Assembly: GCA_964597575.1 (NCBI GenBank)
Contig: CAZQXB010000001.1
Span: forward strand, 778,892 to 842,891
Direction of reading: 5' to 3'
Source: an uncultured Gammaproteobacteria bacterium
Lineage (GTDB): Bacteria; Patescibacteriota; Patescibacteriia; Magasanikbacterales; UBA922
Length of the DNA stretch: 64,000 bases
In this document: one piece after another, positions 22,213 to 54,751 of the stretch
How positions within the stretch are numbered: position 1 is the first letter of the stretch
Layout: every line of letters begins with the position of its first letter
Translations under genes and position numbers: made by a program
The notes under the pieces: model-generated
Database searches by the model: none
Seen by the model: only the letters and a program-made list of their open reading frames with translations
What the model was told of the DNA's origin: nothing

Positions 22213-23400
22213 CTATTGATGTTTTTCAATAATTCTCTCTGAACCAACATGGAAATCATCGAACTCACTTCGTACCTTTAAAATAGTTTCAACGATGCAA
22301 ATCGGCCGGTACGAGCAACCTTGCATAATAAGAAATACCGGCATATACCCGAGCATCATTTGCAAAAGGTATGGAATCACCATGCAAAAAGCAATAACAC
22401 CACCAACAAACCACTTCTTTCCGGCATCATACCAGTGAATAAGCGGGTAGATCGCGAGTGGTAGAACGAACCAGGCAGCAATAAAAACCGTCCGGCTCAT
22501 GAAAATAGGCCAACCTAAATAGGAAAGACTTGGTAAGAAAATGGCTGCAAGGTATACCTTTATGTCAACGGAAAGAGTCGCACGATGACGCCACAACAAA
22601 TACGCACCGATTGCCGCCAAAAGCAGCCAGGCATTAAAAGTCGTCAAATGAATTCCAAACCATTTAAAGAAGGTGTACTCATGGGCGTAGATGCGCCAGT
22701 TATCCATGAGCCATTCATACGAAGAATATCCAAGCACCTTTCCTCGCCACTGATTTACCACAAGAGTAAACGCCGGAAGAATGGCATAGACCAGGCCCGC
22801 TTTTATCGTCGGTTTCAAGCCCGAGCGAAAAAGATGTTCAAGCAAAAGCCCAGCCATGAAAAGCGCACTCATGGAACCACTCTCTTTGGTGAGCATCCCC
22901 AAACTTACCGCGGCTCCCCCAGCCCACAAAAATCGCACAGCTTTTGTTTCTCGCCATCGCCAGGCAGTATACACTCCAATTACAAACCACGCGTAGCCAC
23001 CGATATCCTGTACCTGAGTCAAACCATACCGAAGCAGTGGATACGCTGGAACAAGAAGAAGAACCGCGGCCACACCAGCCAAACGCCGAGCAAACACTCG
23101 CCGAAATAATCCATAGGTGGCCAAAATCATGGCCACATAAAAAATGATGTTCGTAAAAATAAGGGAATTTACGGGCGAAAGAAATCGAAATACTGTTACT
23201 CCAACGATTGGATAGAAAGGGTTGAGATACCGATTCGGGTGGAGCGGGCTATCCCCCCCTCGAAATCGCTCAATCGTCCACACAAAACTGTCTGTATCAT
23301 TATTCGGACGAAAACCAAACACGACACTATACACGACAAGGTGAAGGATCGCAAACCCTACAATAAGAAGAAGGAGTCGGTTACGCTTTACCCAATCCAT
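22213..23400 (-). CDS. Polytopic membrane protein, putative GT-C type glycosyltransferase (hypothetical)
   Basis: 395 aa with about 10 TM helices and no soluble domain. It sits in an operon with GtrB-like GT2 genes. Confidence 0.5.
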
Positions 23401-39299: not shown

Positions 39300-40065
39300 A
39301 AAGAATAGTCAGATTTTTTATGGAAATCCAAAGCGGCATCCGCCTTGAAGCATGTTCTTTGGCAAACACTTCTGGTACGGGTTCCTGAATACGTCGGCCG
39401 ATACCCGTGTAGGTTAGTCTTCGTTTACGACCCCGAGTTCCGCCTGAACTGTACGCAGCATCATCAAGAGGCGAGCGAGTAAGATGTGAGACATGCCAGT
39501 AACGCTCTTTCATCCACAACACCTCTGCCACCTCAAAAAAAACGTGATTCTCGCTATCACGGAGCATATCGTGGTCATAATCCCCTGCCCAATGCACTCC
39601 TCGTGTTTTTTTAAATGCTCGCGGAGAAAACCAACCCTGCTTCCCAAGCATATGGTACGCACCCTCTTTGCGTGTCTCGTGGAAAATATCACCAACGCAC
39701 AGATAAAACGGCACGATAACACACTCTGCATTAGGCTGACTGATTAAACGGAGCAGCTCTTCCCCTCCGCGTTTCGTCCAAATCTCATCTCCGTCAACAA
39801 TAAGGCACCACTCGGTATTTGTTCTTTCAATCATTTCTTGCCGAAGCGCGGTATGGCGCACACGGTCACACGGCCCCTTCTCTTCAAAAAGAATTTTTTC
39901 TGGAAACTCTCTCCTGACTCGCTCAATAATTTCAACCGTTGCGTCGGTTGATCCGGTATCAAATACCATGACTTGGTCGGCAAATGAAACAACCGAACGA
40001 AGTACGGCTTCAATAAAACACTCTTCATTTACGACAATACAGTGGACTGTAAATTTCGAAGGCAT
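39268..40065 (-). CDS. Glycosyltransferase family 2-like protein
   Basis: 265 aa with MVFDTGSTDAT and IVDGDEIW (DxD). Confidence 0.65.
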   Translation of the reverse strand: MPSKFTVHCIVVNEECFIEAVLRSVVSFADQVMVFDTGSTDATVEIIERVRREFPEKILFEEKGPCDRVRHTALRQEMIERTNTEWCLIVDGDEIWTKRGGEELLRLISQPNAECVIVPFYLCVGDIFHETRKEGAYHMLGKQGWFSPRAFKKTRGVHWAGDYDHDMLRDSENHVFFEVAEVLWMKERYWHVSHLTRSPLDDAAYSSGGTRGRKRRLTYTGIGRRIQEPVPEVFAKEHASRRMPLWISIKNLTILFVKRARRYVS

Positions 40066-40067
40066 AC

Positions 40068-41399
40068 TTACAAAGTAACAAGTGTTTTTCTCCGACGAAC
40101 ATACTCTGCGGCCACAACAGTATAGACATTCATAAGAAAGACTGTTCCAAAAAACGAGAAACTTGCTCCAATCACCCCAAATTGGGGAATAAGCACCATG
40201 TTAGCGCCAATCGTAATTGCAAGCTGAAGCACTCCTCCAATAGCAAGCACTTTCGTTGCATTTAATGCTGAAATCATGAGTGACCATGGCAGGGCAAGAA
40301 AATTGAGCAAAATACTATAACTCAAAATAACATAGACATTCATGGAGGCTGCGTACTCCGGCCCAAAAAGAAGAGGGAGAAAAACTTTAGACGGATAAAT
40401 AAAAAGTGCCAAACAAATTACTAAGGGGATAATTTTTCGATACATTGCTTTAAGCAATGTTTGCATTTCTAATACCGTTGCTTTCGCACTCATTTTTGGT
40501 GCAAGAACTGTTGTAAGCGACTGCAGCATATAGGTATAGAACACAATGAGTTGCATGCCGGCACTGTAAATGGCCACGTCTTTTACCGATAAATACCGAC
40601 TGATGAGTGTTTGATCAACCCGAGAGGCAATGATAATAAGAAAAGACCATATCATAACCCAAACACTAAACGAAAAAAGTTTCTGCCTCATTATAGCAAC
40701 CTCCTCGGAAGGAATAATGGTCCGTGAAAATCCTTTGGGTAACTGAGGAAGAGTTCCCAAAGTAACAAGCCACGGCACCGTAATATAGGCAAGAAGGAGG
40801 AGGCGAAGATCAAGAACCCCACAAAATACTAAACCCGCCACAAAAACAAACCGCAAAGTCCCTTTTATGGCATTCACTCGGGCAGCCGCCAAAAAACGTT
40901 GCGTCGCTTGCAAATAGACACTAATTGCTGCCGATAAAATAACCCCTCCCACGCCGAGAAAGGCGAGTTGAAAATACGGAGTGAGTGCTTCTTCATGATA
41001 CAAATGACGCGCTAACACCCCGGAGAGCAAAAGTCCACCAAGGGTAATACACAGAGTAAGGAAAAGGCGCCAACGCCACATCAATTTCACAAGGACCTTT
41101 AGTTTACTTTCTTCATGCTGGGCATAATAGTACGATGCAAAACGAAGAAAAGCGGCATTTAATCCAAAATCTGACAAATCGGTTACAGCCCCCAACACCA
41201 GAAGCGCCAACCCAAACATACCAAAAGCTTCTTGGGAAGTACTTCTTGCTAAAACTAAATTGGTCGCAAAAAGAGCAACATTATTTACAAACGAGCCAAT
41301 ATACACAACCGAAACATCACGGAACGCTTTCAGTTGAAATGTATTTCGAAGCACCTGAAACATACAGCTAATCAATAACCCGCTCTCCGTTTGTTGCAT
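40068..41399 (-). CDS. Oligosaccharide flippase (Wzx / polysaccharide biosynthesis protein, MOP superfamily)
   Basis: 443 aa with about 12 TM helices and a Wzx-like N-terminal region. Confidence 0.7.
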   Translation of the reverse strand: MQQTESGLLISCMFQVLRNTFQLKAFRDVSVVYIGSFVNNVALFATNLVLARSTSQEAFGMFGLALLVLGAVTDLSDFGLNAAFLRFASYYYAQHEESKLKVLVKLMWRWRLFLTLCITLGGLLLSGVLARHLYHEEALTPYFQLAFLGVGGVILSAAISVYLQATQRFLAAARVNAIKGTLRFVFVAGLVFCGVLDLRLLLLAYITVPWLVTLGTLPQLPKGFSRTIIPSEEVAIMRQKLFSFSVWVMIWSFLIIIASRVDQTLISRYLSVKDVAIYSAGMQLIVFYTYMLQSLTTVLAPKMSAKATVLEMQTLLKAMYRKIIPLVICLALFIYPSKVFLPLLFGPEYAASMNVYVILSYSILLNFLALPWSLMISALNATKVLAIGGVLQLAITIGANMVLIPQFGVIGASFSFFGTVFLMNVYTVVAAEYVRRRKTLVTL

Positions 41400-42114
41400 C
41401 TTCCCCTTCTACCCCAAGAAAAGAGTGAGAGACTACCCGGGTTCCTGACCAATACGCAGGCAAAAGAAATTCGGCCGGATAATCAAGAAGTGCAAAAGGA
41501 AGTGAAGACCACAGGGCCCGACGCCACCGCCAAAATTCGTAGCCAGGAAACCCATAGGCACGGGTCGAGAGATACTTAGGGCGGAGAAGCCGACCATGAA
41601 GCCCTGGCCCCTCCCAAGACGTAAGAGTGGCTTTAGGGGTAAGGATATAGCGTCCGCTCACCTTATAATACCACGATGCGCCTTTTGGTATGGTAGGGGC
41701 GAGCGCTAAAAGCATGGCAATTTCACCGAGACTTTTGAGCCGACTATCAACCAGGCGTCGCACCAGCCAGTGCTTTCCAACATGAACCACGCGAATGTCT
41801 GTATCTTCTAAAAGCTCTAGGGGTAATTTAGAGCTTCCCTCTGCCACAATAATACTGACTTTCCCAAAAAGACGTTTCACTGAAGCAATGGTTTCTTTGG
41901 TCTGTTTCAGCCGATCGAGAGGCGCATACACCGAGCGGACTGGCGTGTAGCTGAGGGGTTTTGTTGTCGGCTGGATAACCGACGTAATTATGACACACGG
42001 CGAAGCACTCGTCGTCGGTCGAGACCGCTTCCAAAACAACGCAGCCACAAAAACCATGACTTGCCACGGCCAAACCACACACACTCGGTACAGTTGTCGA
42101 AAAACAAAAAACAT
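41368..42114 (-). CDS. Hypothetical protein (N-terminal TM; possible nucleotide-sugar transferase fold)
   Basis: 248 aa with no confident family match. Confidence 0.45.
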   Translation of the reverse strand: MFFVFRQLYRVCVVWPWQVMVFVAALFWKRSRPTTSASPCVIITSVIQPTTKPLSYTPVRSVYAPLDRLKQTKETIASVKRLFGKVSIIVAEGSSKLPLELLEDTDIRVVHVGKHWLVRRLVDSRLKSLGEIAMLLALAPTIPKGASWYYKVSGRYILTPKATLTSWEGPGLHGRLLRPKYLSTRAYGFPGYEFWRWRRALWSSLPFALLDYPAEFLLPAYWSGTRVVSHSFLGVEGEDATNGERVID

Positions 42115-42123
42115 ACGAATGTC

Positions 42124-42792
42124 TTACCCCTCTCGTTTGGCTTGATAGATAAACTGAATTGCAAAAAATTCTGGAAATGAATGAAGAAGGGGTTTGAGTG
42201 GATACCCGAGGCGACGCAAAAATCGCTCGTGCGATCCTGAACAGGGACGCGCAGACTCTACCAGATATCCCGCACTCTGTATCATCTCAGTCGCCGTTTT
42301 TTTGGTAAAAAAACGAAGGTGCGTTCGATCAAGAATTCCTGCATCCTCATAGGTAAAACGACCACAAAGGAGAGCTTTACGAATAGAGTAATGTGCAATG
42401 TTTGGCATGGAGATCACCAGTTTTCCTTGTGGAGCAAGGAGGGGCCGAAGACGTTGAAGTACTTTGACTGGGTCAACCATGTGTTCAAGAACGTCTGCCA
42501 AAAAAAGAACGTCAAATTGACCGGCCTCTGCTGCATGCCGCTCAATAAATTCTTCCACCGTCTCTTGAAATAACTTCGCATACCCAACACTTGAGGCATC
42601 ACGAAAAAGGGTCTCAACCGGCTCAATTCCCCACACCTCACACTTTTTTTCATGAATAAGGTACTCCCCCATATATCCACTTGCTGTTCCAACCTCAAGA
42701 ACACGGCTCTTCGCAGGAACTGTTTCTAAAAGAAGCTGGTGTGTACTAAACGGAGCAGGGTCGTATCGATATGTTCTTTTGGAATTATTCAT
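42124..42792 (-). CDS. Class I SAM-dependent methyltransferase
   Basis: 222 aa with VLEVGTASGYMG, DVLFLADVLEHM and ISMPN. Confidence 0.75.
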   Translation of the reverse strand: MNNSKRTYRYDPAPFSTHQLLLETVPAKSRVLEVGTASGYMGEYLIHEKKCEVWGIEPVETLFRDASSVGYAKLFQETVEEFIERHAAEAGQFDVLFLADVLEHMVDPVKVLQRLRPLLAPQGKLVISMPNIAHYSIRKALLCGRFTYEDAGILDRTHLRFFTKKTATEMIQSAGYLVESARPCSGSHERFLRRLGYPLKPLLHSFPEFFAIQFIYQAKREG

Positions 42793-44311
42793 AGAGGGTC
42801 TGTTTTACTCGGGCACGAATAAGTAAAAAGAGTGGATACCCCCACACACCGAGAGCGACTATGGCACCGAACCAAAAAAACGGAGTTGGGTCATTGTGTA
42901 TGGACGTGTTTGAGATGAACCACAAGGGATAAAAGAAAAACGGTGCGGAACATATCCAAATCCACAGTCGTTTCGGCAGGCGAATAAGGTTCCGGCGTAT
43001 ACAGTACCAAGCAAACGGCAAAAGCCACGCAGTATACCACGGCCAAAAAGATTTTTGCCAAACCATAAGGAAAACGAGGAAGGAAAGAGTGATTGCACCT
43101 ACGGTCTGTTCTTCACCCCACACCGTTCGAAAGAAAAGTGCCTGAAATGCTTTTTTTATCAGTGGCCAAAGGAGCCAGACAAGAAGAACGAAGAGTGTGC
43201 CTTGAACACCCCGAGTTAAATACCAGTGGTATCCTTCACCAAGAAGCGACTGTGACAGTGGTTTTAATCCGTAGTATACAGTGGAAAATAAACTCATGAC
43301 CGCCCATTTTGACTGCATGAGAATAGGGGTAAACACTTTTGGACCATTCCAATATGGTGCCCACGCGGCAACAGTGAGAACGGTTACGACGCCACCCCCG
43401 AGGAGCAGATCTTTCAAGCGCACTGACCAATTTTTTCCCGTATCCTGCCACCACCACAAGAAAAACCATGGTGCTGTAAAAAGCGGAAGAAATTTAAGCC
43501 ACACCCCAACCATCAAAATCCCCGCCACAAAAACCCACTGACGGCTCCGAGCAAAAATGATTGCTAACAAAACAGTGATCACCCACAGCGCATCAAAGTG
43601 ACCATTCGTCACCCATTCAAAAAGAAGAATCGGAAAAAAGAGAAGCCAAATTTTTTTTTGAGATGTTGGTACTTCCTTTTCCAAAAGTTGTGAAAGGAGA
43701 AAAACTAAAAAAATCAAAGCTCCCACCATGAGCATCTTCCACAAAAAGAGAAATAAAAATGGATTTCCTTGGCTCGCTTTTTCTACGAGCACAAAAAGGT
43801 CAGCTGCAAGCGGACCGTACGAAAAGCCATGCACCGTGCTATCGGGCAAAGTATTCCCCGCAAACACATAGGAACGAGGCCAGGATTCGACAAACGGGTT
43901 CACCCCCTCAAGAATAGCTTGCCCTGCGGCTCGATAATACGTCATGTCGCTTGAACCGAGCGGAACAATAAGAAACGCAAGGCAGGCCACCAGTGGAAAA
44001 AGCCAACGATAGGTTGCTTTAGAAAAAAGCTCCTCCCTCTTTAAAAGAAAAGTGGTGGCGCCAGCAAAGAGTATTCCGACAAAAATAAGAAGAGCACCAA
44101 TACCCACAGCCTGGAGAGTAGTCGTTGGGGCCTGGCAGGTGAGCCAACCCACTTGCCACGCGCAAACACCGACAAGCGAACGGTACCACAAAAAAAGTGA
44201 CGGCACAGCAAGAATACCAAAGCCAAACAGAAGGGTGAGAAGTGGGGCCTCGCGGCGAAGACGAGCGATCATAGAGGACGACGAATAGTGGCAATAAGAG
44301 ATACCCCCCAA
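42785..44311 (-). CDS. Polytopic membrane protein, putative GT-C type glycosyltransferase (hypothetical)
   Basis: 508 aa with about 13 TM helices and Trp-rich loops. Confidence 0.5.
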   Translation of the reverse strand: MGGISYCHYSSSSMIARLRREAPLLTLLFGFGILAVPSLFLWYRSLVGVCAWQVGWLTCQAPTTTLQAVGIGALLIFVGILFAGATTFLLKREELFSKATYRWLFPLVACLAFLIVPLGSSDMTYYRAAGQAILEGVNPFVESWPRSYVFAGNTLPDSTVHGFSYGPLAADLFVLVEKASQGNPFLFLFLWKMLMVGALIFLVFLLSQLLEKEVPTSQKKIWLLFFPILLFEWVTNGHFDALWVITVLLAIIFARSRQWVFVAGILMVGVWLKFLPLFTAPWFFLWWWQDTGKNWSVRLKDLLLGGGVVTVLTVAAWAPYWNGPKVFTPILMQSKWAVMSLFSTVYYGLKPLSQSLLGEGYHWYLTRGVQGTLFVLLVWLLWPLIKKAFQALFFRTVWGEEQTVGAITLSFLVFLMVWQKSFWPWYTAWLLPFAWYCIRRNLIRLPKRLWIWICSAPFFFYPLWFISNTSIHNDPTPFFWFGAIVALGVWGYPLFLLIRARVKQTLYE

Positions 44312-45009
44312 GGAAGTGTGCCGAGAAGACGAAACATCCCGTATTCAAAAAAATAAGGAATACTCATGACTCCGGAAATAAATGGTGACACTGGCCGGAC
44401 GTCTGACGTTTTTTTCTCTTTTTGAAACAAACGCATATACTGCCGAACCAAGACTACCCCCGGCAAAATAGTGGCATGAATCCAGCCAATACGGCTTTCT
44501 TTCGCAACGGAAGTAATCAGCGAGCGGAATGTCTTTTTAGTATACCGACGCTTATGGTGCAGAGCTACGTCGTGATACGACCAAAGGCTTGGGTGAGCCG
44601 GAACCGTGACCACAATAGTGCCGCCCGGCTTTACGACGCGATACAATTCCTTCATGACCTGCTCATCGTTATCGACATGCTCAATCATATCAAGCGCCGT
44701 AACGACATCAAATGACGCATCAGGGAATGGCAAGGCCGTAGCCTCTCCGAGGGTAACTCGCTGGCCTTTTTTTTCACAAAATGACTTTGCAAGAGGACTC
44801 ATATCAAGACCTTCAGCCGCAAAACCAAGCTCACTCAATTCTAAAAGAACTGCCCCGGTGCCACACCCCACATCGAGTGCCCGAAGTGAGCCTTCTGACG
44901 CACGAACCCCATTGTGTTCTAGGGCGAGACGCAAAAAATGACGCTTGGCTTTAAACCACCAATGGTCCTGCTCCAAAATATTCATTGATGCGTACTCCTC
45001 TTGTTCCAT
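44269..45009 (-). CDS. Class I SAM-dependent methyltransferase
   Basis: 246 aa with ALDVGCGTG, DVVTALDMIEHV and VKPGGTIVV. Confidence 0.75.
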   Translation of the reverse strand: MEQEEYASMNILEQDHWWFKAKRHFLRLALEHNGVRASEGSLRALDVGCGTGAVLLELSELGFAAEGLDMSPLAKSFCEKKGQRVTLGEATALPFPDASFDVVTALDMIEHVDNDEQVMKELYRVVKPGGTIVVTVPAHPSLWSYHDVALHHKRRYTKKTFRSLITSVAKESRIGWIHATILPGVVLVRQYMRLFQKEKKTSDVRPVSPFISGVMSIPYFFEYGMFRLLGTLPWGVSLIATIRRPL

Positions 45010-45012: not shown

Positions 45013-45771
45013 CTAACGATATTTACCACTGACACGGTTCGATAGCATTTGCCCGAGTTCCTGAAGCGAGCGAATAACGGCCTGAAATACTTTTACCCGG
45101 GAATCATCATCGTGGGCCCAAGCAACCGGCATTTGACGAACAGGGATTTTGTGAATATGCGCGATATAAAGAAGCTCGGTATCAAACCCCCAGCGATCAA
45201 TGCGAGCCCGAGGAAAAATGACATCAGCCGCATCCCTATGAAACGCTTTAAACCCGCACGTAAAATCTTTAATTCCTGGAACCAAAAGGTTAGAAAGTTT
45301 CGTAAAACCATGACCCAAAAAGGTACGGATCGATGACTCACTTTTTTGAATTGCGGAACCCTCCAATCGCCGACTCCCGATAACAATACGATCGGTTGGC
45401 GCCAGGACCTCCAAAAGATGATTAAATTCAGTAAGTGGAGTCGCGAGATCGATATCAAAAAATAAAACCCACTCACCTTTTGCATGTTTTGCCCCTTGTC
45501 GGACCGCGTATCCTTTCCCGTGGTTTTCAGAATAGGTGACAAGTTCGAACTGATATCTTTTCTGATACTCACGAAGCATTTTTTCTGTCTCATCTTTTGA
45601 TCCGTCATTCACAAAAAGAATTTCTACCGGCATCGGCACTGATTGAAAAAAAGAAAAAATCTGGTCAATCGTCTTAGGGATACGTCGTGTTTCGTTATAC
45701 ACCGGAATAACAATAGAAAAACGCGGTCGCTCCATATTAATTAAGAGAATATTTCTTGATAAGCTCTTCAC
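45013..45771 (-). CDS. Glycosyltransferase family 2 (polyprenol-phosphate sugar synthase-like)
   Basis: 252 aa with IVIPVYNE, VNDGSKDET and FDIDLATP. Confidence 0.8.
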   Translation of the reverse strand: MKSLSRNILLINMERPRFSIVIPVYNETRRIPKTIDQIFSFFQSVPMPVEILFVNDGSKDETEKMLREYQKRYQFELVTYSENHGKGYAVRQGAKHAKGEWVLFFDIDLATPLTEFNHLLEVLAPTDRIVIGSRRLEGSAIQKSESSIRTFLGHGFTKLSNLLVPGIKDFTCGFKAFHRDAADVIFPRARIDRWGFDTELLYIAHIHKIPVRQMPVAWAHDDDSRVKVFQAVIRSLQELGQMLSNRVSGKYR

Positions 45772-47749
45772 GAGTGGCTCCTAAATCAATACCCGAGGAA
45801 ACTGCGAGATCTAACGTTTTCTTCACTGCTTCTTTTTGACTTGTTACGTCATAGAGCCACAGAAGCCGAATCCAGCTCTCACGAATTTTCGGATCACTCT
45901 CCACGGCCCCCTGAAGCAAGGCCTCGGCTTCGGCAAATTTTCCTAAACGGGTCTTAATCGTAGCAAGCGTAAACGCAAGCTGTTGGCGCTTTGGCGAAAA
46001 AGGGATTGCTTGCTGCATGATCTCTTCAGCCTGAACAAGATATGATTGCTTTCCAGTAAGAACCGCCTGTTGCTCAAAGAGACTCGCCAATTGAATATTA
46101 ATACGCACATCGCGAGGATGAAGTGTGTGATTTTTTTCAAGCTCAAGAGCAGCTTTTACAAGAAACGCTTCAGCAAGCTCTTTCTGTTTTTGCTCGGCCA
46201 GTGGCCCAGCCACCTCGCCCATCACTCTCCCGACATCGTTACGCACATCATCAATATGTGGCGTAGGGATAGCAAGTGTTTCATCGTAGAGGGCAATAGC
46301 AGCTTGTGGGTTTCCATACACCGCCTGAACCGTTTTGAGCGCAGATTGGTTTGCGCGTTTTGGACTTATGTCCGTACTATATAAAAGTAAAAGTACAATG
46401 ATCCCAGCCCCAAGTACTGACGGCCAAGAAATCGCTTTTTTTGCTTCCCCTGTTTTTGCATGCTCACCCATGACGTAACCTGCGAGAAGAGCTAAAAAGA
46501 AGAAAAACGAAAGATACGAAGTCGGATTTTCAAAAACAAACAAGTTATGAACTAGGTGAGCTACAGTAAACCCGACCATCACAATAGCTGTTGCACTATT
46601 TATTCTTCCCGATTTCACGAGCCTGAAAATGGTATACACGGCAGCAGCAAATAACCCTAAATAACTTGCCACCCCAAGAACCCCCTGCGTCGCGAGGGTA
46701 TTCATGATCACGTTATGGGCATTATCGAACCAGGTTTCTCCATACCCAAACCGTAAAAATTCTGGACGATAAAATTCGTTAAAGGCGTAATAATAATTAT
46801 TCGGCCCCCATCCAAACACCGGTTTTGCTTTCCAGGCCTCAAAAGCCACTTTCCAGGCCATTAAACGGGTGCTTGCCGTCCCCTCAGAAAGCTCAGTGTT
46901 CAAAAGCGGGCCAAGCGAAGGGATCTCGCGGATAAACGAAGTCTGTCGAAACGAAACAAGCAAGGCTAAAACAATGACACCGAGAGCAATAACTCCGAGC
47001 GCAGGACGCCGAACTTTCGCATCAAAACGATACTTCCATAGTGTTAAAATGCTTATAATTCCAAGACCACTGAAAACCCCAAGGAGTGTTCCTCGAGTTC
47101 CACCCATGAAAATACCGAGAAATCCAAGAAAGGCACCAACGAGATAGGCGTATCGAACTGACATTTTAGCCACAGTGTCTTCAAAAAACATCCAGACTCC
47201 GAGAGCTAAAATAAACAAACCGTATCCACTTAAATAAATAGGGTTTCCGAGTGTTGCCGAAACACGGGTTGCCCCACGATTCAAAAACCACTCTGGATCA
47301 ATTTTTTGCCGCACCGCAAGAAGCATGACTAAGCTCCCTACCCCCAAAGCGACACGCTCAAGGAATCTCCAATCTTCTTTTTTCCGAATAACCGAGGAAA
47401 GAATAAGTGCGTAGGCGCCATAATGAAGCAAGGTAAAAAGACCAAGCATGCGCTCGTGGTTATTCCACAAACTTTGGTATGGATCTACTCCGAAAATGGT
47501 CGACAAAAGCCAGCTGAACAAAAAAGCGCACAAAACAAACACGAGGGCGATCTTTTTTGGAGCATACGCTTTTACATCTGAAAAGAGTAAGACGCTATAT
47601 ACTCCGATCATCACAAGAACGACCGAACGAAAAAAAAGAATTTTTGGTACGATAAAAGGAAAGATATAATCCGATGGGAACACCATGAGTGGCACGAGAA
47701 ACGCAATGGCTCCAAGACCAAGAATCACCCTCTCAAGAATTCGCTGCAT
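45737..47749 (-). CDS. O-antigen ligase (Wzy_C) family membrane protein with C-terminal TPR repeats; candidate O-oligosaccharyltransferase
   Basis: 670 aa with about 12 TM helices, a Wzy_C-like periplasmic loop (STRLMAWKVAFEAWKAKPVFGWGPNNY) and a C-terminal roughly 220-aa TPR-like helical region. Confidence 0.75.
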   Translation of the reverse strand: MQRILERVILGLGAIAFLVPLMVFPSDYIFPFIVPKILFFRSVVLVMIGVYSVLLFSDVKAYAPKKIALVFVLCAFLFSWLLSTIFGVDPYQSLWNNHERMLGLFTLLHYGAYALILSSVIRKKEDWRFLERVALGVGSLVMLLAVRQKIDPEWFLNRGATRVSATLGNPIYLSGYGLFILALGVWMFFEDTVAKMSVRYAYLVGAFLGFLGIFMGGTRGTLLGVFSGLGIISILTLWKYRFDAKVRRPALGVIALGVIVLALLVSFRQTSFIREIPSLGPLLNTELSEGTASTRLMAWKVAFEAWKAKPVFGWGPNNYYYAFNEFYRPEFLRFGYGETWFDNAHNVIMNTLATQGVLGVASYLGLFAAAVYTIFRLVKSGRINSATAIVMVGFTVAHLVHNLFVFENPTSYLSFFFFLALLAGYVMGEHAKTGEAKKAISWPSVLGAGIIVLLLLYSTDISPKRANQSALKTVQAVYGNPQAAIALYDETLAIPTPHIDDVRNDVGRVMGEVAGPLAEQKQKELAEAFLVKAALELEKNHTLHPRDVRINIQLASLFEQQAVLTGKQSYLVQAEEIMQQAIPFSPKRQQLAFTLATIKTRLGKFAEAEALLQGAVESDPKIRESWIRLLWLYDVTSQKEAVKKTLDLAVSSGIDLGATREELIKKYSLN

Positions 47750-47752
47750 ACA

Positions 47753-48532
47753 CTAGTAGATATGTTCGTCAAACCAGATTTCTTTGATTGCAACTTCAGC
47801 TTCTTTTACTTGGGCATTTGGAACACTGACCGCAAGATACCAATCATTCAGCACATTCGGAACCACGAGAAGTGATCGTCCGTTTGCATTACTTGTCACC
47901 TTAAATGCAGTATAGTCGCCCAATGTTCCGGCAATAAGCCGGCCAGTCCCCCGTAAACCTAACTGCGTGATAAGCTCAGCCTCTGGAGTTGAGGTGGTGA
48001 GGCAGGAAAAACATTTTGGACTAAACCCTGAAATAGACGGAAGTGCTTCACCCTTTCCATACCACCACACCAGCGTTTCTGTTTTCCCTCGGGCGGTTGA
48101 GGTAACAAAACTCATGCGATAGATATCAATACCTTTTTCTTTTGTAACAACAGGGCTCCCCCACGCTTGGTTGTAGCACATGGTAAGTGATGTTCCGCCG
48201 AGCACATACACCTCATCACCCCGACTCCGGCAGGTATTTGCGAAATCATATCGCACCATAACCAATTCAAATTCCTCTCTACTCGAAACCCGGGCACCAA
48301 AGCGATCACGACAAAACTTTTGTCCCTCATCGAGAACAGGAAATATTGGTGGACAAACACAGTACGGAGCAGTTGAAGTAACATCTCCGCCAGAAGCTTC
48401 GCACGACAGCGCTAAGGTCGCCCGCTCACGTTCACGGGCTTCTTTCTTTATATAGAGATACGAAGAAACGATAAGTACCGAAAAGAAAAGCAGATACCCA
48501 ATACCTTGGAAAATAGAGCGAGGAGAAGTCAT
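47753..48532 (-). CDS. Hypothetical membrane-anchored Cys-rich protein
   Basis: 259 aa with an N-terminal TM helix and at least 10 Cys. It is the first gene after the promoter at 48544-48572. Confidence 0.5.
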   Translation of the reverse strand: MTSPRSIFQGIGYLLFFSVLIVSSYLYIKKEARERERATLALSCEASGGDVTSTAPYCVCPPIFPVLDEGQKFCRDRFGARVSSREEFELVMVRYDFANTCRSRGDEVYVLGGTSLTMCYNQAWGSPVVTKEKGIDIYRMSFVTSTARGKTETLVWWYGKGEALPSISGFSPKCFSCLTTSTPEAELITQLGLRGTGRLIAGTLGDYTAFKVTSNANGRSLLVVPNVLNDWYLAVSVPNAQVKEAEVAIKEIWFDEHIY

Positions 48533-48543
48533 ATAATGACGCC

Positions 48544-48572
48544 ACTATACCATGAGGGAAAGAACCCGTCAA
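48544..48572 (-). promoter_or_regulatory. Near-consensus sigma70 promoter (TTGACG-17-TATAGT) giving a near-leaderless start for the long minus-strand operon
   Basis: On the minus strand, TTGACG (48572-48567), a 17-nt spacer and TATAGT (48549-48544). Only 11 nt separate the -10 from the ATG at 48532. Confidence 0.55.
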
Positions 48573-48589
48573 AAGACCTTTGAACCCTA

Positions 48590-48628
48590 CCCAAAAACAA
48601 AACTCCCCCGCCGAAGCGAGGGAGAATT
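48590..48628 (-). terminator. Strong rho-independent terminator after the giant surface-protein gene
   Basis: The minus strand reads ctccctcgc-ttcg-gcgggggag followed by ttttgttttt. The stem is GC-rich with a UUCG-type loop. Confidence 0.7.
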
Positions 48629-48648
48629 TGTTTCCTATCACGAAAGGA

Positions 48649-51600
48649 TTACCCTTGACGTGAAAGTGAAGTACCAACGACATCATATGAATCTGATGCA
48701 ACGTATGCTTCAGAGTTCACTGAACCGTTAACTGGAGTGTAGTAGTATTCAACTACGCCATTTGCCCAGTTATCTTCGAATTCGTCGGCTGAAGCGTCGT
48801 AGCCAGTAGCGCCGTCAAGTTTCGGTGAAACTGAAACGGTGATCTGACCAACACCACTCGCTTTACCATTGAACATAGCGGTAGTGTCAGCAACCAAGAT
48901 GAGGGTGCGTGAGCTACCAACTGGAATGGTGAAGTTATCGAGAAGGCTGTTCGTGTCATTTGATTGACCGAATACAACGTTCAAAGTGTTACCTGCTGAA
49001 GCATTGACACCGTTTGTGATGCCGATACCACCAGCGAGGCTAGCGGTGCTCGTTGCAGCGATCTGTGTTCCAAGACCACCTGACGAGTTCGCTTCCCAGA
49101 GTTGCCATGTTCCGATCGTACCAGTTGCAGTTCCGTTTGCAGTAAGACCACTTGCAGCCACATTAATGGTTGTAGTAGAAATACGCATTTCACGGTCACC
49201 ACTGTTGGTGATGCTGAACTGGAAGATCTTAGCTTGTGATGACTGTTCCAAAGTTGAACCAATGTTCACCGAAGCGATCACTGGAGCAGTGTTGTGGAAC
49301 AAGTAGAACGATGAAGTAGCAAAACGAACTGAAGTCGTATTTGCACCTGACGTTGTGCTGTCGATCTGAGCTAATCCAAGCTCCCCGCCTGACGCTGCAA
49401 CGATGCGAACATCGTTGGTGTCATTGTTGCTACGAATAGCAAACGCGTTGATGCTTGCAACATCCATGGTACCTGAACCGTTAATTTCACCCTTCAAAAC
49501 AATGTACTTAGTTTCGTCTGCACCAACTGAGTAGTTAAGCCCAGTGAAGCGAACGTAACCTGCACTTGATCCTGGAGTGTAGCTTGCTGAACCGATAGGA
49601 GTTGACATGTTGTTTGAATCGTAGAGATACAACGTGCCAAAGTTTCCTGCTGAAGTATCAGAAGCTAATGTGTCGTCTACAACCTGGAAGGTAAGACGTT
49701 CAATATTAACAGTTTCGTTTTCAGCCTTGATTGACCACTTACCAAGCTGCATCGGAGCAGCACTTGGAGTGCGGATCGATGAGATGGTCGTGCTGTCATT
49801 TGATGCAGCGATAACAACGTTAGCAGCACCAAAGGTAATCGTCTGGCCGGTAACAGCAGTAGCTGTGTCACTGTTGCTGGTCGATTGACCAACGTAGGTA
49901 ACAGCGAAGCTTACTGAAGTCGTACCAGATGAAGTTGATTCAGTGTCTGACCATACTTTGATCACCTTCTGCTCATTCGCAGCGAGTGCGAGTGAGAAGC
50001 TGAAGCTGTTCGATGAAGTAGCAACAGTGCTGAGGGTTGAACCCAAAGCGTTGTTGTTTGCATCACGAAGTTCAAGGTTCTTCAAGTATGTAGGAGCGCT
50101 GAATGCGCCACCGCCATTAAATGAAACGGTTGCGTTTGTAATGCTTACAGCTTCTGCATCACCTGCACGCACAACGAAGCGACCCACTTCGATCTTCGAA
50201 CCTAGGGAAGCTGTGCGGTTACCAAGTGCTGTGTCTTTCGACAAAGTCAAGCTGGTAGTGTCTGCAGTAAGCGTGTTACCTGCAACAACTGACGTAGCGA
50301 GATCGCTGAAGTCATTTGTTGAGAGACGTTTCGCATACAAGTTACCGAACGATACCGTATAGGTAGCAGTTCCAGTAGCTGTTGTTGGGATGTTCCCGAT
50401 AACTTCAACAACTTTCGTTTCGCCTGAAGCAATATTGATATATTGCGAAAGGTTGTACTGAGTTGCGCTGTTATAGAGGCTTGAACCAGCTGAAACGGTA
50501 AGAACCGTAACACCATCAACCACTACGCGAACGTTGCCGGTCAAACCAGCTGCGCCAGCGAATGATGAGGTAGCAACACGAAGTGCTGCTTTGCGGATTT
50601 CAAGATCTTCACCTACGGCCTTGAGGTCGTAGCGAGCAAGAACGCGATCGGTAGCACCAGCTGAAACGCGAGTTGATGGTGAATCATTGCGTTTTGAAAC
50701 TGAAGCTGAACCTGACTTCATCTTGAACCAACCGTCTGATGACGATACAGCCAAGAATGATGCTGGCAACACGTAAAAACCTGTTGAAGCATCTTGAAGC
50801 AAGATGTCGTAATCGTTCTGAACTTGCGCGCGGAAGTAGTTACCTGAACCATCATTGATCTTACCACGGAGTGTAACTACGCGGTTTGAACCTTCTGGAA
50901 TCGTGTAACCATTTGCGATGTTGAATGAAACGTAGCGGTCAGTAATTTGAGTAGCAGTACCAAGAACGGTATTGTCTGGAGCGCGGAGCTCAAGATCAGT
51001 TACGTCACGGTCCTGAAGGCTACCCTGGAAGTACACGCGAATATTCTTCAAGTGTACATCGTTATTACCACTCGTTTCGCTGATGCGGATCTTCAAAAGA
51101 TCTTTTACTTCAGCAATTTCAACGTTCCCTGCGGTTCCGCTTGATGGTTCAGTACCCAACCCACCAACTGACTGACCAGTTAAGGTTACAGTTGAGAGTG
51201 CGTCATCGCCATCAGTTAAACCAAAGGTGTTCCCAATAATTGGAAATGCGCCTGAAACAGTACCGTTTGAGATAATGTCAGAAGCAAGAGCAATATTAGC
51301 ACCAACAGTACCACCAGTTGCGTCGCTTGCTAAGTTCATAGCAACCGTCAAAACTTTTGATGAACCTGCTGGAATTGTTACTGCGTCAACACCGAAGTTG
51401 ATTGTTACTTTATCTTCCGAGTTGAAAGATGACATAACATCACCAAGGCGCATACCATCAACCCAAGCGCTTACGCCTGAGATCTTTGAGTTTGCAACCA
51501 AGCCAGTTTTGCGAACAGTAATACCTGAAACGCGAACTGGAGCGCTGTTTGCCATGAGGTTGATTTTCAAAACCTCATTATACGCAGTGCTGTTTGAGAG

Positions 51601-52434
51601 TGTCGTACCTACTGGGGTATTTGCACTCAAACCAACTGAAAGGGCACCACCGGTTGGGGTAGGACCTGGAGTTGGGTTAGGTGTTGGGTTAGGGTTCACT
51701 GAACCTGAACCAGCACCTTGTGTTGGATCCATGCTGAGGTCAGCACGCATCACGTTTGAACCAGTACCAAACGAGTTGAATGTTGATTGAGGAACGGTCG
51801 CAACATATCCTGAAAGGAATGAAGGAACGCCACCATCAACCATGCGGAGCATTCCGCCTTCAACCATGTATACAGCTGATGATGAAGCGAGTTTCACAAG
51901 CATACCATTTACTGGCATACCAGTGCTGTCACCTGCAACAACGCTGAAGTTCGCCCAGAACGCTGGATGTACATCGTACACTTTGCGGTTCCAGTTGCTG
52001 CCAGCAAGCATTGCTGCTGCGGCTTCGCTTGCGATACGGCGAATTTTGTTTCCAGATTCTACTACGTAAACGGAGTTAGAAGCTTGGAGTTTGACCAAAG
52101 TACCAGGACGGAAGTTTACGCCGTATGGTGCTGCGGTTGGCATGGTGTAGTTATCGAAGCATGATGGATCAATTGTCACCACACCTGAGTAATCTGCGAA
52201 CCATGATTTGTAGACATTTGCATTTGGGAAAAACAACGGTTGTAAATTCTGGTTAAGAATGTAAACCGCTGGATCTCCAGCGACCTTGAACTGACTGCCA
52301 ACCTGAAGGGCTGGGCATTCAACAGCTTGCGCTGCCAAAGGTGCAAGGGCCGCAACTCCCATGCTCCACAAAATAGTGGTAACAACCACTGACATTGTGA
52401 AGCCTTTTTTTACAGCTTTTAAAGCACTATTCAT
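48649..52434 (-). CDS. Giant secreted repeat-rich surface protein (candidate S-layer / surface glycoprotein)
   Basis: The preferred start at 52434 (MNSALKAVKKGFTMSVVV...AQA) gives a classic signal peptide. The ORF extends to 52572. It has three roughly 50-aa N-terminal repeats (SxxVYxVExG), a PT-rich linker NPNPTPNPTPGPTPTGG, then about 1000 aa that are Thr/Ser/Gly/Asn/Val-rich, presumably beta-rich, with almost no Cys. Confidence 0.75.
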   Translation of the reverse strand: MNSALKAVKKGFTMSVVVTTILWSMGVAALAPLAAQAVECPALQVGSQFKVAGDPAVYILNQNLQPLFFPNANVYKSWFADYSGVVTIDPSCFDNYTMPTAAPYGVNFRPGTLVKLQASNSVYVVESGNKIRRIASEAAAAMLAGSNWNRKVYDVHPAFWANFSVVAGDSTGMPVNGMLVKLASSSAVYMVEGGMLRMVDGGVPSFLSGYVATVPQSTFNSFGTGSNVMRADLSMDPTQGAGSGSVNPNPTPNPTPGPTPTGGALSVGLSANTPVGTTLSNSTAYNEVLKINLMANSAPVRVSGITVRKTGLVANSKISGVSAWVDGMRLGDVMSSFNSEDKVTINFGVDAVTIPAGSSKVLTVAMNLASDATGGTVGANIALASDIISNGTVSGAFPIIGNTFGLTDGDDALSTVTLTGQSVGGLGTEPSSGTAGNVEIAEVKDLLKIRISETSGNNDVHLKNIRVYFQGSLQDRDVTDLELRAPDNTVLGTATQITDRYVSFNIANGYTIPEGSNRVVTLRGKINDGSGNYFRAQVQNDYDILLQDASTGFYVLPASFLAVSSSDGWFKMKSGSASVSKRNDSPSTRVSAGATDRVLARYDLKAVGEDLEIRKAALRVATSSFAGAAGLTGNVRVVVDGVTVLTVSAGSSLYNSATQYNLSQYINIASGETKVVEVIGNIPTTATGTATYTVSFGNLYAKRLSTNDFSDLATSVVAGNTLTADTTSLTLSKDTALGNRTASLGSKIEVGRFVVRAGDAEAVSITNATVSFNGGGAFSAPTYLKNLELRDANNNALGSTLSTVATSSNSFSFSLALAANEQKVIKVWSDTESTSSGTTSVSFAVTYVGQSTSNSDTATAVTGQTITFGAANVVIAASNDSTTISSIRTPSAAPMQLGKWSIKAENETVNIERLTFQVVDDTLASDTSAGNFGTLYLYDSNNMSTPIGSASYTPGSSAGYVRFTGLNYSVGADETKYIVLKGEINGSGTMDVASINAFAIRSNNDTNDVRIVAASGGELGLAQIDSTTSGANTTSVRFATSSFYLFHNTAPVIASVNIGSTLEQSSQAKIFQFSITNSGDREMRISTTTINVAASGLTANGTATGTIGTWQLWEANSSGGLGTQIAATSTASLAGGIGITNGVNASAGNTLNVVFGQSNDTNSLLDNFTIPVGSSRTLILVADTTAMFNGKASGVGQITVSVSPKLDGATGYDASADEFEDNWANGVVEYYYTPVNGSVNSEAYVASDSYDVVGTSLSRQG

Positions 52435-52694: not shown

Positions 52695-54020
52695 TTACCG
52701 CACCACCGGTTGTGGTGACGGGGAAGCCTGTGTTGAGGAACTCGTTGCCGCAGAACCAGTTGGTGCGGGGGCAGTACTTACCGTACCAGTTGCGGTTGAA
52801 GCCGGTGGAACTGGTTGAGGTAACGACGTACTGTACACTTTGAGCGTTATTTCCGGAGTGACTGATGTTTCAATTTCTTTTTTCAAATTGAGTGCAGTTT
52901 GTAGTTTTTCAAGTGCTCCTCGCAAATTTTCTTGACCAAGCAGCACTTTTGCATCAGCCACAGCCTGAGCCGCAGTCTCCACCTTCTCTTGAACTGTTCT
53001 TTCTGGCGCGACTACTGTTGGTATAGTACCTGTTGCTGTAGAAGAAGTTGTTACAACAGCCATAGGAATAGTACTCGTTTCTGTTGACGCACCAGCAGTA
53101 CTTGAAACAGTAGAAGAAGCTGAACTTGGAGTAGACGCCTCAACAACAGGCAGGGTACCAGTAGCCGTAGAGGAAGCTACTGATTGAAGGGCGTTAAATG
53201 TTGATTCTAAACTAACAAGAGCTTTTTCAAGCGTAAGATTTACCGCTTGAGAGGATCCTTCTGAAGGAGTAGGGCCATTTGCAATAATGTGAGCGGCGGT
53301 AACCACAGCATTCACATTTGTTTCTGCAACTAAATTTGCGACAACAGCAACCTCTGTTTTTACGGCCATCGAAAGATCTGTTGATTTTATTTCGGTCGGA
53401 ATATTTGTAACAGAATTTGATAAATCGGTAGCGATCTGAGAAGTTTTTTCTGACACCACACTGAGAAGAGCAGAAGGATCACCTGAAGAAGTTTTTACTT
53501 TTTGAATCTCTTCATTTGTTGATTTAATATTTTCTTTCAAAGAAAGCACGACGGTCTTTGCCTGCTCCTGCTTTTTAACAACATCACTTGGAGAAGTTTG
53601 AATTTTTTTCAACTCCCCTGCTCGCTTCTGTGCATGATTCAAAAGAACTACCACTTTTTCCCCGTTACTGCCAGCAAGAAGCAGTTCCTTTTTTTCATTG
53701 ACTTTTTTAACACTATATAAGAAGTCTCCTGGTAAACTTGATTCTGCGGCTGAAACTGACACACCCCATCCATATATTGCTACACCGAAAATAAGAACGT
53801 AGACGAATGAAGCGCGGGCAATGGTTGCGATTGGACGAGGTAATAAAAACGAAAGAAAGTTTGAGAAATTTTTTGCTCGTGATGGAGATGCTTCCCGACG
53901 AGGGGCTCCCGGAACCTCATTCATCAGGCGCGCCGAAACACGCGACTTCCATTCAGCGCGAGGAGCGAGGGTCGGCAGAGCCGAAAGAGACTTCAATTGT
54001 GACCGAAGGTCACGATTCAT
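52695..54020 (-). CDS. Anti-sigma factor-like membrane protein with DUF5667-type domain and Ser/Thr/Ala-rich C-terminus
   Basis: 441 aa, overlapping the sigma gene stop. The cytoplasmic N-terminus is followed by a single TM (FVYVLIFGVAIYGWGV) and the block GDFLYSVKKVNEKKE. The C-terminal tail is low-complexity and S/T/A/P-rich. Confidence 0.65.
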   Translation of the reverse strand: MNRDLRSQLKSLSALPTLAPRAEWKSRVSARLMNEVPGAPRREASPSRAKNFSNFLSFLLPRPIATIARASFVYVLIFGVAIYGWGVSVSAAESSLPGDFLYSVKKVNEKKELLLAGSNGEKVVVLLNHAQKRAGELKKIQTSPSDVVKKQEQAKTVVLSLKENIKSTNEEIQKVKTSSGDPSALLSVVSEKTSQIATDLSNSVTNIPTEIKSTDLSMAVKTEVAVVANLVAETNVNAVVTAAHIIANGPTPSEGSSQAVNLTLEKALVSLESTFNALQSVASSTATGTLPVVEASTPSSASSTVSSTAGASTETSTIPMAVVTTSSTATGTIPTVVAPERTVQEKVETAAQAVADAKVLLGQENLRGALEKLQTALNLKKEIETSVTPEITLKVYSTSLPQPVPPASTATGTVSTAPAPTGSAATSSSTQASPSPQPVVR

Positions 54021-54588
54021 ACAAAGGATTCCGAGGTTGGCGTTTAATAACTTCTTCTAATTTTTTCGTGGCGCGATGCAGAGTAACACGGACCGCAGTT
54101 TGCTTCTTTTGCAAGGCTTCGGCAATTTCTTTGACTGACATCTCTTCCACGTAACGAAGAAAAATGACATCTTGATATTCTTGCTTCAACTGCTTTACTG
54201 CCTGAAGAAGCATTTCAGCATCTCCAGATTTTGCAGCCGCTTCGAATGCACTTGGTCGTGAGTCTGGAGTTTCCATAACCACATCAACCGACTCTGTTGG
54301 ATGTTTGGCTCGGCTACGATAGAAATCAATAATCGTACTCCGAGCAATGGTATACATGAATGCGCGGAAATGACGAACTTCTTCACGTTCAGAATTTGTA
54401 AGATACTGCCACGCTTTGGCAAACGTTTCAGCGGCTACATCTTCTGCTTCTTCGCGATGAGCAATTTTTAAAGCCACAAACCGGTAGATAGCCGAGGCAT
54501 ACTTTTGATACAGTATACTAAAGGCATCGCGGTCATGGTGGTGGCGAATGCGAAAAAGAAGAGTCAATTCATTCTGCACACTATCCAT
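54010..54588 (-). CDS. ECF-type sigma-70 family RNA polymerase sigma factor
   Basis: The ATG at 54588 (MDSVQNELTLL) is preferred. The ORF extends to 54693 through an unlikely hydrophobic N-terminus. Region 2 (YRFVALKIAHREEAEDVAAETFAKAW) and a region 4 HTH (MSVKEIAEALQKKQTAVRVTLHRATKKL) are present. Confidence 0.8.
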   Translation of the reverse strand: MDSVQNELTLLFRIRHHHDRDAFSILYQKYASAIYRFVALKIAHREEAEDVAAETFAKAWQYLTNSEREEVRHFRAFMYTIARSTIIDFYRSRAKHPTESVDVVMETPDSRPSAFEAAAKSGDAEMLLQAVKQLKQEYQDVIFLRYVEEMSVKEIAEALQKKQTAVRVTLHRATKKLEEVIKRQPRNPLYES

Positions 54589-54751
54589 ACAAGAAGACGT
54601 GAGAAAAGGAAAAACGTTACACCCAGCACTGTCACAACCAAAAAAGATATCTACGAGTATAGCCAAAAAAGCGGAAAAAAACAAGGCCCACACCCCTTAA
54701 ATACGGTTTTTTGATTACCTTAGTGATACCATTTTGTAAAAAGGATTTTAT

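Follow-up and report, generated by a model that had tools for sequence, protein, structure and literature searches.

What does an O-antigen-ligase-family membrane protein do when its gene lies two genes downstream of that for a giant, Ser/Thr-rich surface protein in a bacterium of the candidate phyla radiation (CPR)? We addressed this question for a stretch of 64,000 nucleotides of contig CAZQXB010000001.1 (positions 778,892 to 842,891), here called the window, whose own numbering is used throughout. A sequence-only reading had placed a ligase-like enzyme with a C-terminal tetratricopeptide repeat (TPR) domain at 45737-47749 and had proposed that it O-glycosylates the giant protein. Both key proteins have their nearest relatives in metagenome-assembled genomes of Candidatus Magasanikbacteria, a CPR group, and nearly all of the window is taken up by a run of minus-strand genes for sugar-nucleotide enzymes, glycosyltransferases, methyltransferases, and membrane proteins. 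Our comparison of related loci demonstrates that the giant gene and the Wzy_C/TPR gene, the second gene 3' of it, are a conserved unit across Magasanikbacteria. To the further proposal, that the locus serves to O-glycosylate a surface protein in the manner of the S-layer glycosylation systems, we give even chances.

A scan of species-representative genomes from the enzyme side gave 80 loci, 59 of which have at least 6 kb of sequence upstream. In 51 of these 59 species loci, a homolog of the giant protein is encoded upstream of the Wzy_C/TPR gene on the same strand, with a gap of less than 1.1 kb in 25 of the 51. Directly 3' of each giant-protein homolog examined from the other side (46%, 37%, 36%, 28%, and 24% identity; five of five) lies a Wzy_C gene. 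A second Wzy_C paralog of ~680 to 790 amino acids (aa) sits between the giant and the Wzy_C/TPR genes in roughly one in three of the 51 loci (L009, L014, L019, L020, L027, L031, L032, L034, L043, L058, L064, L065, L069, L074, L083, and L084; also L001). In our window, this slot is taken by a 259-aa membrane protein without a Pfam or NCBIfam family match, the gene for which occurs in 4 of the 80 loci; an NCBIfam scan of ten locus proteins returned only noise. Some loci (L006 and L007) have a shorter Wzy_C gene, with the TPR encoded next to it in a small gene of its own. Many loci of the Magasanikbacteria type (L008, L012, L014, L016, L017, and others) are labeled "uncultured Gammaproteobacteria bacterium," which is probably a placeholder or wrong.

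The two genes are separated by a strong, GC-rich terminator that follows the stop codon of the giant gene (48624-48603). An equivalent terminator lies 3' of the giant homolog in all 52 related loci compared (L008-L087); among 793 other genes of the loci, any terminator-like site was found for 23%, and one with a dG of <= -15 for 5%. For a CPR gene, this transcription stop is very conserved. Behind it, a promoter-like site (48544-48572) consists of TTGACG, a spacer of 17 nucleotides, and TATAGT with an upstream TG, with 10 of 12 consensus matches. On the other side of the giant gene, a homolog of the extracytoplasmic function (ECF) sigma factor is found upstream in 43 of the 80 loci, as well as in L001, L003, L005, and L006, and the DUF5667 protein is found upstream in 29 of the 80. 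The recurrence of this pair suggests that the giant gene is regulated rather than constitutive.

Adjacency of this kind could simply be gene order inherited within one clade, with the two genes acting independently. Nearly all loci come from a single lineage, Magasanikbacteria, and the terminator separates the two genes, both of which would fit. However, the flanks have been reshuffled while the pair was kept, even as the proteins diverged down to 24% identity, and the block has stayed intact in the many loci where the second Wzy_C paralog has been inserted between the two genes. We regard mere inheritance of gene order as very unlikely.

The giant protein has the makeup that the sequence-only reading had described, namely, a signal peptide, a Pro/Thr linker, and about 1000 aa of Thr/Ser-rich beta-type sequence. 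Because homolog N termini support it, we chose the ATG at 52434 as the start (1261 aa) over a longer, TTG-initiated open reading frame (ORF) that reaches 52572. The N terminus (MNSALKAVKK, a hydrophobic stretch, and AQA/VE) is a predicted Sec signal peptide, read by eye from the sequence. The mature protein would have a mass of 126.6 kDa and a pI of 4.8, with 2 Cys residues; Ser and Thr make up 22% of the protein overall and 20 to 36% per 100 aa, compared with a window median of 11%. It belongs to a family of ~1250-aa proteins of Magasanikbacteria, and searches of Pfam, NCBIfam, and PDB sequences with it gave no match. As the earlier reading had suggested looking for Ig-like repeats in a predicted structure, it is of note that the AlphaFold2 (AF2) model has an all-beta body (predicted local distance difference test [pLDDT], 87.8) and that Foldseek matched it to generic Ig-like arrays only (PrgB Ig-like domains, alpha-2-macroglobulin, and integrins), with a Haloferax S-layer protein at rank 30. 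The low predicted template modeling score (pTM, 0.45) is expected, since the protein is a string of domains. The model contains three low-confidence stretches, two of them short and near the C terminus. The first (protein residues 243-258, which are model residues 205-220, with a pLDDT of <50) is where the linker NPNPTPNPTPGPTPT falls, whose Ser/Thr/Pro fraction across homologs has a median of 0.375 versus 0.26 for the whole protein. Our guess is that this flexible Gly/Ser/Thr/Pro linker is the likeliest glycan acceptor region.

The N-terminal repeats number three, as proposed earlier, but are ~60 to 65 aa long each instead of roughly 50 aa. In pairwise alignments compared with shuffled sequences, R2/R3 reached a z score of 9.4, R1/R3 were weakly similar (z score, 3.4), and R1/R2 were not significantly so; the AF2 model has three small, alike units at the N terminus. 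Self-BLAST of the giant protein detected no internal repeats, and the repeats are seen only by the shuffled pairwise alignment and the model. The three-repeat module is common to 81 of 91 giant-protein homologs. The remaining homologs carry SLH domains (P0053), a coiled coil plus PG_binding_1 (P0039, P0068, and P0091), or other repeat modules in its place, while the body and the C-terminal SDSY-x-V-x-G end are kept. As known SLH and PG_binding_1 domains replace the repeats, wall anchoring is implied for the module as well. Two of the PG_binding_1-anchored variants (L007 and L088, the latter on a short contig) keep a Wzy_C gene 3', and the link is therefore with the protein body and not with a particular anchor polymer. 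The contigs of the SLH variant and of one PG_binding_1 variant are too short to include neighboring genes. The SLH-anchored variant (L089-L091) is represented by nine contigs of ~3.67 kb from different runs, each ending within ~140 bp of the gene boundaries, a recurrent and odd pattern.

An exhaustive search with the three-repeat module, which we used for the counts since a word-indexed homology search gave 2 matches, found 3264 cluster representatives, 1195 of them at an E value of <= 1e-10. The carriers range from 195 to 2178 aa and hold the module at the N or C terminus of unrelated extracellular proteins, in combination with beta-propellers, a GH113-like hydrolase, MBG-domain giants, SH3b, or an archaeal-type S-layer domain; the module also occurs in a second ORF of the window (9165-11003, minus strand). 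It matches no Pfam family and is probably an undescribed CPR cell-wall-binding domain. Taken together, the anchor swaps, the mobile module, and the conserved strong terminator point to the giant protein being a wall-anchored, abundant coat protein. Like S-layer proteins, it combines predicted secretion with an anchor module that is separate from, and interchangeable on, the body.

The enzyme is firmly a member of the Wzy_C/WaaL-PglL superfamily, in agreement with the earlier description of an O-antigen-ligase-family protein. Pfam Wzy_C (PF04932) matches it at 72.2 bits (cutoff, 31.7), and all 32 family members tested match as well. Its TPR matches of 24.3, 22.1, and 18.6 bits fall just under the Pfam cutoffs; PDB TPR matches, among them OGT and SPINDLY, and the model confirmed the domain. 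The model has the WaaL-type polytopic fold with a large extracytoplasmic loop, 13 membrane helices, and a pTM of 0.90, which suggests a fixed arrangement of membrane and TPR domains. The topology was derived from the helix count and the positive-inside rule: the short inner loops hold 11 Lys/Arg among 42 residues and the short outer loops 3 among 54, with the N terminus inside. The large loop (residues 267-346) and the TPR domain (residues 481-670) are both predicted to be outside, the latter because of the added 13th helix, with the TPR domain beside the catalytic loop. Invariant residues gather on the outer face. Three of them, R219, R295, and H345, are invariant in 53 sequences; the reference residues are R215/R288/H338 in Escherichia coli WaaL and R224/R298/H349 in PglL. 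HMMER pairs R219, R295, and H345 with all three PglL residues, and hhalign confirms the last two pairs.

The profile comparison with PglL and WaaL that the sequence-only reading had recommended gave matches to both, without a decision for PglL. The membrane domain matches WaaL (PDB 7tpg) with an E value of 2.9e-7 (33 bits) and 9rmk, "Oligosaccharyltransferase," with an E value of 1.3e-6 (31 bits). We take 9rmk to be Neisseria PglL, as the numbering of its aligned segment reproduces the PglL residues of PMC3643930. The alignment of the enzyme with this segment by hhalign has a probability of 95% and pairs R295 with R298, G313/G315 with G316/G318, H345 with H349, E/D407 with E404, and P409 with P406; the Gly, Glu/Asp, and Pro pairs were also obtained with HMMER. 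Residues G316, G318, H400, E404, and P406 are conserved in PglLs and not in WaaL (PMC3643930). This residue pattern is suggestive only of a place for the enzyme in the protein-transferase branch.

Several observations weigh against the proposed O-glycosylation module. The counterpart of PglL His400 aligns in HMMER only and with a different spacing, which leaves it ambiguous; Pfam PglL_A (PF15864) matches none of the 32 family members even at an E value of <= 10; and WaaL is not only slightly ahead of PglL in score but also the best fold match. By sequence and fold, the enzyme cannot be separated from WaaL-type lipid ligases. The near invariance of its outer loops, set against a giant-protein identity that falls to 24%, would also suit a conserved nonprotein acceptor. 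On the side of the presumed substrate, the giant protein is without homology to any known S-layer family in Pfam, NCBIfam, PDB sequence, and Foldseek comparisons, Ser/Thr richness is the norm among surface proteins rich in beta structure, and there is no known sequon; a constitutive S-layer gene would not normally have an ECF sigma pair upstream. A giant homolog is absent upstream in 8 of the 59 loci, 4 of which have only smaller, different ORFs there. Finally, the glycan on the giant protein is itself a prediction.

Some of these points would fit an enzyme that acts on a cell-wall glycopolymer, either polymerizing repeat units on undecaprenyl pyrophosphate (Und-PP) or ligating a chain to a lipid or wall acceptor. 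Such a polymer could be the matrix or secondary wall polymer that holds the giant protein, and the genes would be adjacent since both serve the envelope. The match to WaaL, the lack of one to PglL_A, and the outer loops, nearly invariant as for a conserved small acceptor, all speak for it. Many Gram-positive Wzy_C proteins, such as TuaE, are polymerases that build wall polysaccharides, and S-layer genes often adjoin those for their anchoring polymer, as with csaAB of Bacillus anthracis. Secondary wall polymer systems are available for comparison (bioRxiv 10.1101/2025.04.02.646754).

A repeat-unit-specific Wzy polymerase, however, should diverge alongside its glycan genes and have a Wzz partner. 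The enzyme here is 38 to 65% identical across the 80 species loci, although the sugar genes differ from locus to locus: those downstream in the window are shared by 30 (GT2), 7 (508-aa membrane protein), 6 (Wzx), and 1 (248-aa protein) of the 80, and the annotated loci have quite different transferase sets. An enzyme that stays constant as the sugar genes change is better explained as a ligase or transferase with relaxed donor specificity than as a repeat-unit-specific polymerase, and window ORFs of at least 150 aa include no Wzz-type chain-length regulator. In addition, the pairing outlasts the swap of the anchor to PG_binding_1, a binder of peptidoglycan itself; external TPR domains, fused or adjacent, have been reported for protein transferases (WsfB, WsaA/WsaB, and TfpW); and residues aligning with the Glu-x-Pro reported as PglL specific are present. 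We consider the glycopolymer explanation a serious rival, although a less likely one. A more specific variant, in which the polymer made by the enzyme would anchor the three-repeat module, was rated lower, as the PG_binding_1 variants keep their Wzy_C neighbor.

If the enzyme does modify proteins, the giant protein need not be its main or only substrate. As a general protein O-oligosaccharyltransferase, it would act on low-complexity Ser/Thr/Ala/Pro segments, for example, in the DUF5667 protein, or else on pilins or other secreted proteins. The DUF5667 protein has a single transmembrane segment (TM; ~residues 64-89), a Lys/Arg-rich N terminus, and an extracellular tail (residues 266-441) with 32% Ser plus Thr and 55% Ser/Thr/Ala/Pro, the type of flexible, low-complexity region modified by Neisseria PglL (PMC3643930), and is also conserved upstream; its tail is a possible second acceptor. 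Moreover, the other four of the eight loci without a giant homolog (L055, L057, L068, and L070) have in its place a different secreted protein of ~1000 to 1300 aa, all with a lamin-tail domain (LTD) and three with a phospholipase C (PLC)-like domain. Those of L055 and L070 match Zn-dependent phospholipase C, and that of L057 has a beta-helix region. A PilT gene is present in the window, but no pilin gene lies near the locus. The link between giant protein and enzyme, seen in 51 of 59 loci, is nevertheless tighter than that with DUF5667 (29 of 80), and L007 has the giant and Wzy_C genes without the sigma/DUF5667 pair. We find a general transferase of this kind unlikely.

Considering these data, we favor a ligase or transferase of relaxed donor specificity tied to the protein body over a repeat-unit polymerase or a synthase of an anchor polymer because the enzyme is constant while sugar genes vary, because the pairing persists through anchor swaps, and because the TPR domain is external. 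In the model that we propose for this O-glycosylation module, the giant gene would be transcribed alone, between the sigma/anti-sigma-like pair and the strong terminator, and would give rise to an abundant secreted protein of ~127 kDa, held on the wall by its three N-terminal repeats and with its ~8 beta-sandwich domains projecting outward. A separate operon directly 3' would supply the small membrane protein, the Wzy_C/TPR enzyme, and the variable sugar genes. The glycan would be assembled on Und-PP by the Bac_transf enzyme and GT2/GT4 transferases and carried across the membrane by the Wzx-type flippase. At the outer face, the Wzy_C/TPR enzyme would then move it en bloc to Ser/Thr (or Tyr) residues of the giant protein leaving the Sec channel, with the external TPR domain docking the protein substrate. 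Gene content, fold, topology, conserved residues, and conserved pairing are the observed basis of these steps; the Und-PP donor, the protein acceptor, the acceptor sites, and the formation of an S-layer lattice are what we infer.

The sequence-only reading had held that the flippase and the phosphotransferase complete an en bloc, lipid-linked pathway. The domains are indeed there, and the pathway looks complete at the domain level only; the phosphoglycosyl transferase is encoded on the opposite strand at a distance of 29 kb. Among window ORFs of at least 150 aa, we found no LCP ligase, Wzz, or ABC exporter. A lipid A-core-like acceptor had been named beforehand as a finding that would speak against protein glycosylation; neither lpx nor waa genes (lipopolysaccharide [LPS] core/lipid A) occur in the 64-kb window. 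As a CPR bacterium, the host probably lacks an outer membrane, and CPR bacteria are generally without LPS genes. Overall, the proposed O-glycosylation gained independent support for the link between giant protein and enzyme from the pairing, the predicted external TPR domain, the PglL-like residues, and a layout like that of the S-layer glycosylation (slg) loci of Firmicutes, while the enzyme itself did not part from the WaaL-type ligases.

A second Wzy-like gene, noted earlier at 62716-63996, is present as described. Its product keeps the catalytic-loop Arg and His and part of an E-x-(P/T)-S-Y motif, and a search of the 80 loci for a homolog up to 10 kb from the ligase gene found none. The protein could serve as a polymerase or as a further ligase; as these ligase-type features are retained, we did not adopt an assignment as the Wzy polymerase.

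More speculatively, the 1250-aa family could be the long-sought S-layer (outer coat) protein of Magasanikbacteria, within a conserved three-part module made up of a CPR-specific wall anchor unmatched in Pfam, a dedicated WaaL-fold O-oligosaccharyltransferase that has acquired a 13th helix and an external TPR domain for gripping the protein, and an ECF sigma/anti-sigma pair controlling the coat. We put this forward tentatively; if it is correct, coat assembly and glycosylation would for the first time be described in molecular terms for a CPR lineage. CPR bacteria (Patescibacteria) make up a large share of bacterial diversity, almost none of it cultured, and their envelopes have been seen by cryo-electron microscopy while remaining molecularly undefined. 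The locus offers a candidate main surface protein for one CPR class, a wall-anchoring module that occurs in thousands of CPR extracellular proteins, and the enzyme most likely to add species-variable sugars to the surface protein. Surface composition, host attachment, and phage or immune recognition in CPR bacteria thus become testable, and the enzyme may be a compact new O-oligosaccharyltransferase for bioconjugation.

Features of the giant-protein locus and associated glycan genes in the window
Feature	Position	Strand	Basis or remark
ECF-type sigma factor	54010..54693	-	Sigma70_r2 and r4_2; first gene of conserved block
DUF5667 single-pass membrane protein, anti-sigma-like layout	52695..54020	-	DUF5667, E 3e-8
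Giant secreted surface protein, 1261 aa	48649..52434	-	
Predicted signal peptide, residues 1-37, AQA/V	52324..52434	-	Sequence read; homologs share N terminus
Three-repeat N-terminal module, residues ~44-235, presumed cell-wall anchor	51730..52305	-	Repeat statistics
Disordered Gly/Ser/Pro/Thr linker NPNPTPNPTPGPTPT, candidate O-glycosylation site	51640..51708	-	pLDDT <50
Ser/Thr-rich beta-sandwich domains, ~1000 aa, ~8 by strand pattern	48652..51639	-	DSSP of model
Strong intrinsic terminator just 3' of giant gene	48603..48624	-	9-bp stem, 7 GC pairs, T-run
Promoter-like site, head of downstream glycan operon	48544..48572	-	Consensus match only
259-aa single-pass membrane protein, Cys-containing outer domain	47753..48532	-	N-terminal TM
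Wzy_C/WaaL-fold membrane domain of ligase-like enzyme, residues 1-480, 13 TM helices	46310..47749	-	
C-terminal TPR domain, residues 481-670, predicted external	45737..46309	-	PDB TPR matches and model
GT2 glycosyltransferase	45013..45771	-	Glycos_transf_2, E 7e-29; start overlaps ligase stop by 35 bp
Variable glycan-operon part: methyltransferase, 508-aa polytopic membrane protein, methyltransferase, 248-aa protein, Wzx-type flippase, GT2	39268..45009	-	
Wzx-type flippase	40068-41399	-	Polysacc_synt, E 1e-16
Second Wzy_C protein, 426 aa, no TPR, beside three GT4 genes	62716..63996	-	Wzy_C, E 1.7e-9
Initiating phosphoglycosyl transferase (Bac_transf)	11015..12436	+	E 1e-54

Other genes of the window deserve mention; those named here lie on the minus strand unless stated otherwise. 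The ligase-headed operon contains, between two methyltransferase genes, a gene for a 508-aa polytopic membrane protein without a family match (42785-44311). Two paralogous polytopic membrane proteins of ~600 aa (34121-35911 and 37485-39299; 34% identical, E 3e-110), neither with a Pfam match and each with a C-terminal soluble domain, flank a fused epimerase/reductase-methyltransferase gene and may be undescribed membrane glycosyltransferases. The two genes at 20069-23400 encode a 713-aa protein that joins a GT2 domain to a large polytopic membrane domain and, after it, a weakly PMT_2-like membrane protein (395 aa). This pair points to a polyprenol-phosphate-sugar route with glycosylation outside the membrane, another possible way of modifying proteins or glycans; in locus L006, PMT/PMT_2 genes adjoin the homologous giant/Wzy_C module. 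The glycan cluster also includes an asparagine-synthase homolog (27472-29358) and a radical SAM enzyme (32796-34028).

Three further likely surface proteins flank the cluster: a subtilase with a long C-terminal extension (7116-9152), a GHL15 plus FG-GAP protein (58404-60404), and a 603-aa single-pass, beta-rich protein (55255-57066), which is found upstream in 24 of the 80 loci, mostly on the opposite strand. The sole plus-strand island of the region besides the Bac_transf gene, at 12001-14025, has a local GC content of 0.525 versus ~0.46, encodes small putative secreted proteins, and contains a fully overlapping antisense ORF pair (13537-14025 and 13543-14010).

Among known systems, the slg loci of Geobacillus stearothermophilus NRS 2004/3a and Paenibacillus alvei (SgsE/SpaA and WsaB/WsfB) offer the broadest likeness. 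There, a large secreted surface protein gene with its own transcription stands beside a glycan cluster, the S-layer gene sgsE adjoining its glycosylation cluster and being transcribed separately (PMC2943079); in the window, we observe the adjacency and the conserved terminator, with the giant protein as a candidate S-layer protein only. The predicted transferases WsaB and WsfB carry Wzy_C, with a C-terminal TPR in WsfB and a TPR neighbor, WsaA, for WsaB (PMC2943079), so that the TPR is either fused, as in WsfB and the window, or encoded by a neighboring gene, as for WsaA and in L006 and L007. We liken the enzyme to WsaB/WsfB by their published description. Shared as well are a Bac_transf-type initiating enzyme and, with P. 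alvei, an asparagine-synthase homolog in the cluster (wsfA, compared with 27472-29358 in the window; PMC2943079). In contrast, the slg loci use a Wzm/Wzt ABC transporter, whereas the window has a Wzx-type flippase instead, the host is a CPR bacterium, and the surface protein is unrelated to SgsE/SpaA and carries an undescribed anchor module.

The tandem Wzy_C paralogs of many related loci recall the tandem tfpO-pglL of Acinetobacter. Neisseria PglL and Acinetobacter PglL/TfpO, encoded beside pilin/ComP genes (PMC3643930), share with the enzyme the Wzy_C core and the aligning Arg/Arg/His, Gly-x-Gly, and Glu-x-Pro residues. As pglL genes are usually adjacent to the target gene (PMC3643930), the position of the enzyme gene just after that of the giant protein, its presumed target, is a further likeness. 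Unlike PglL, the enzyme is unmatched by PglL_A and has an extra helix and an external TPR domain of ~190 aa, and its presumed target is a 127-kDa beta-sandwich protein and not a pilin. WaaL of Cupriavidus metallidurans (PDB 7tpg/7tpj) has the large outer loop with conserved Arg and His but differs in having 12 helices, no TPR, and a lipid A-core acceptor, for which LPS genes are missing from the window. TfpW of Pseudomonas aeruginosa is likewise a polytopic transferase with a large periplasmic C-terminal TPR domain, and its gene lies directly after that of its substrate, pilA (bioRxiv 10.1101/2020.04.19.049825); it is a GT-C enzyme (ArnT-like) with a polyprenol-phosphate sugar donor, however, and not of the Wzy_C/WaaL fold.

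In our literature search on CPR bacteria and O-antigen-ligase-family enzymes or on Magasanikbacteria surface proteins, we found no earlier description of such a system or of this protein family; two preprints and a review mention only the occurrence of S-layers in some Patescibacteria. In conclusion, while a surface protein beside a Wzy_C transferase is a concept already established in Firmicutes and Proteobacteria, the locus analyzed here differs from those systems in its lineage, in an unrelated surface protein with an undescribed anchor, in the use of Wzx instead of an ABC exporter, and in the conservation of the pair in Magasanikbacteria.

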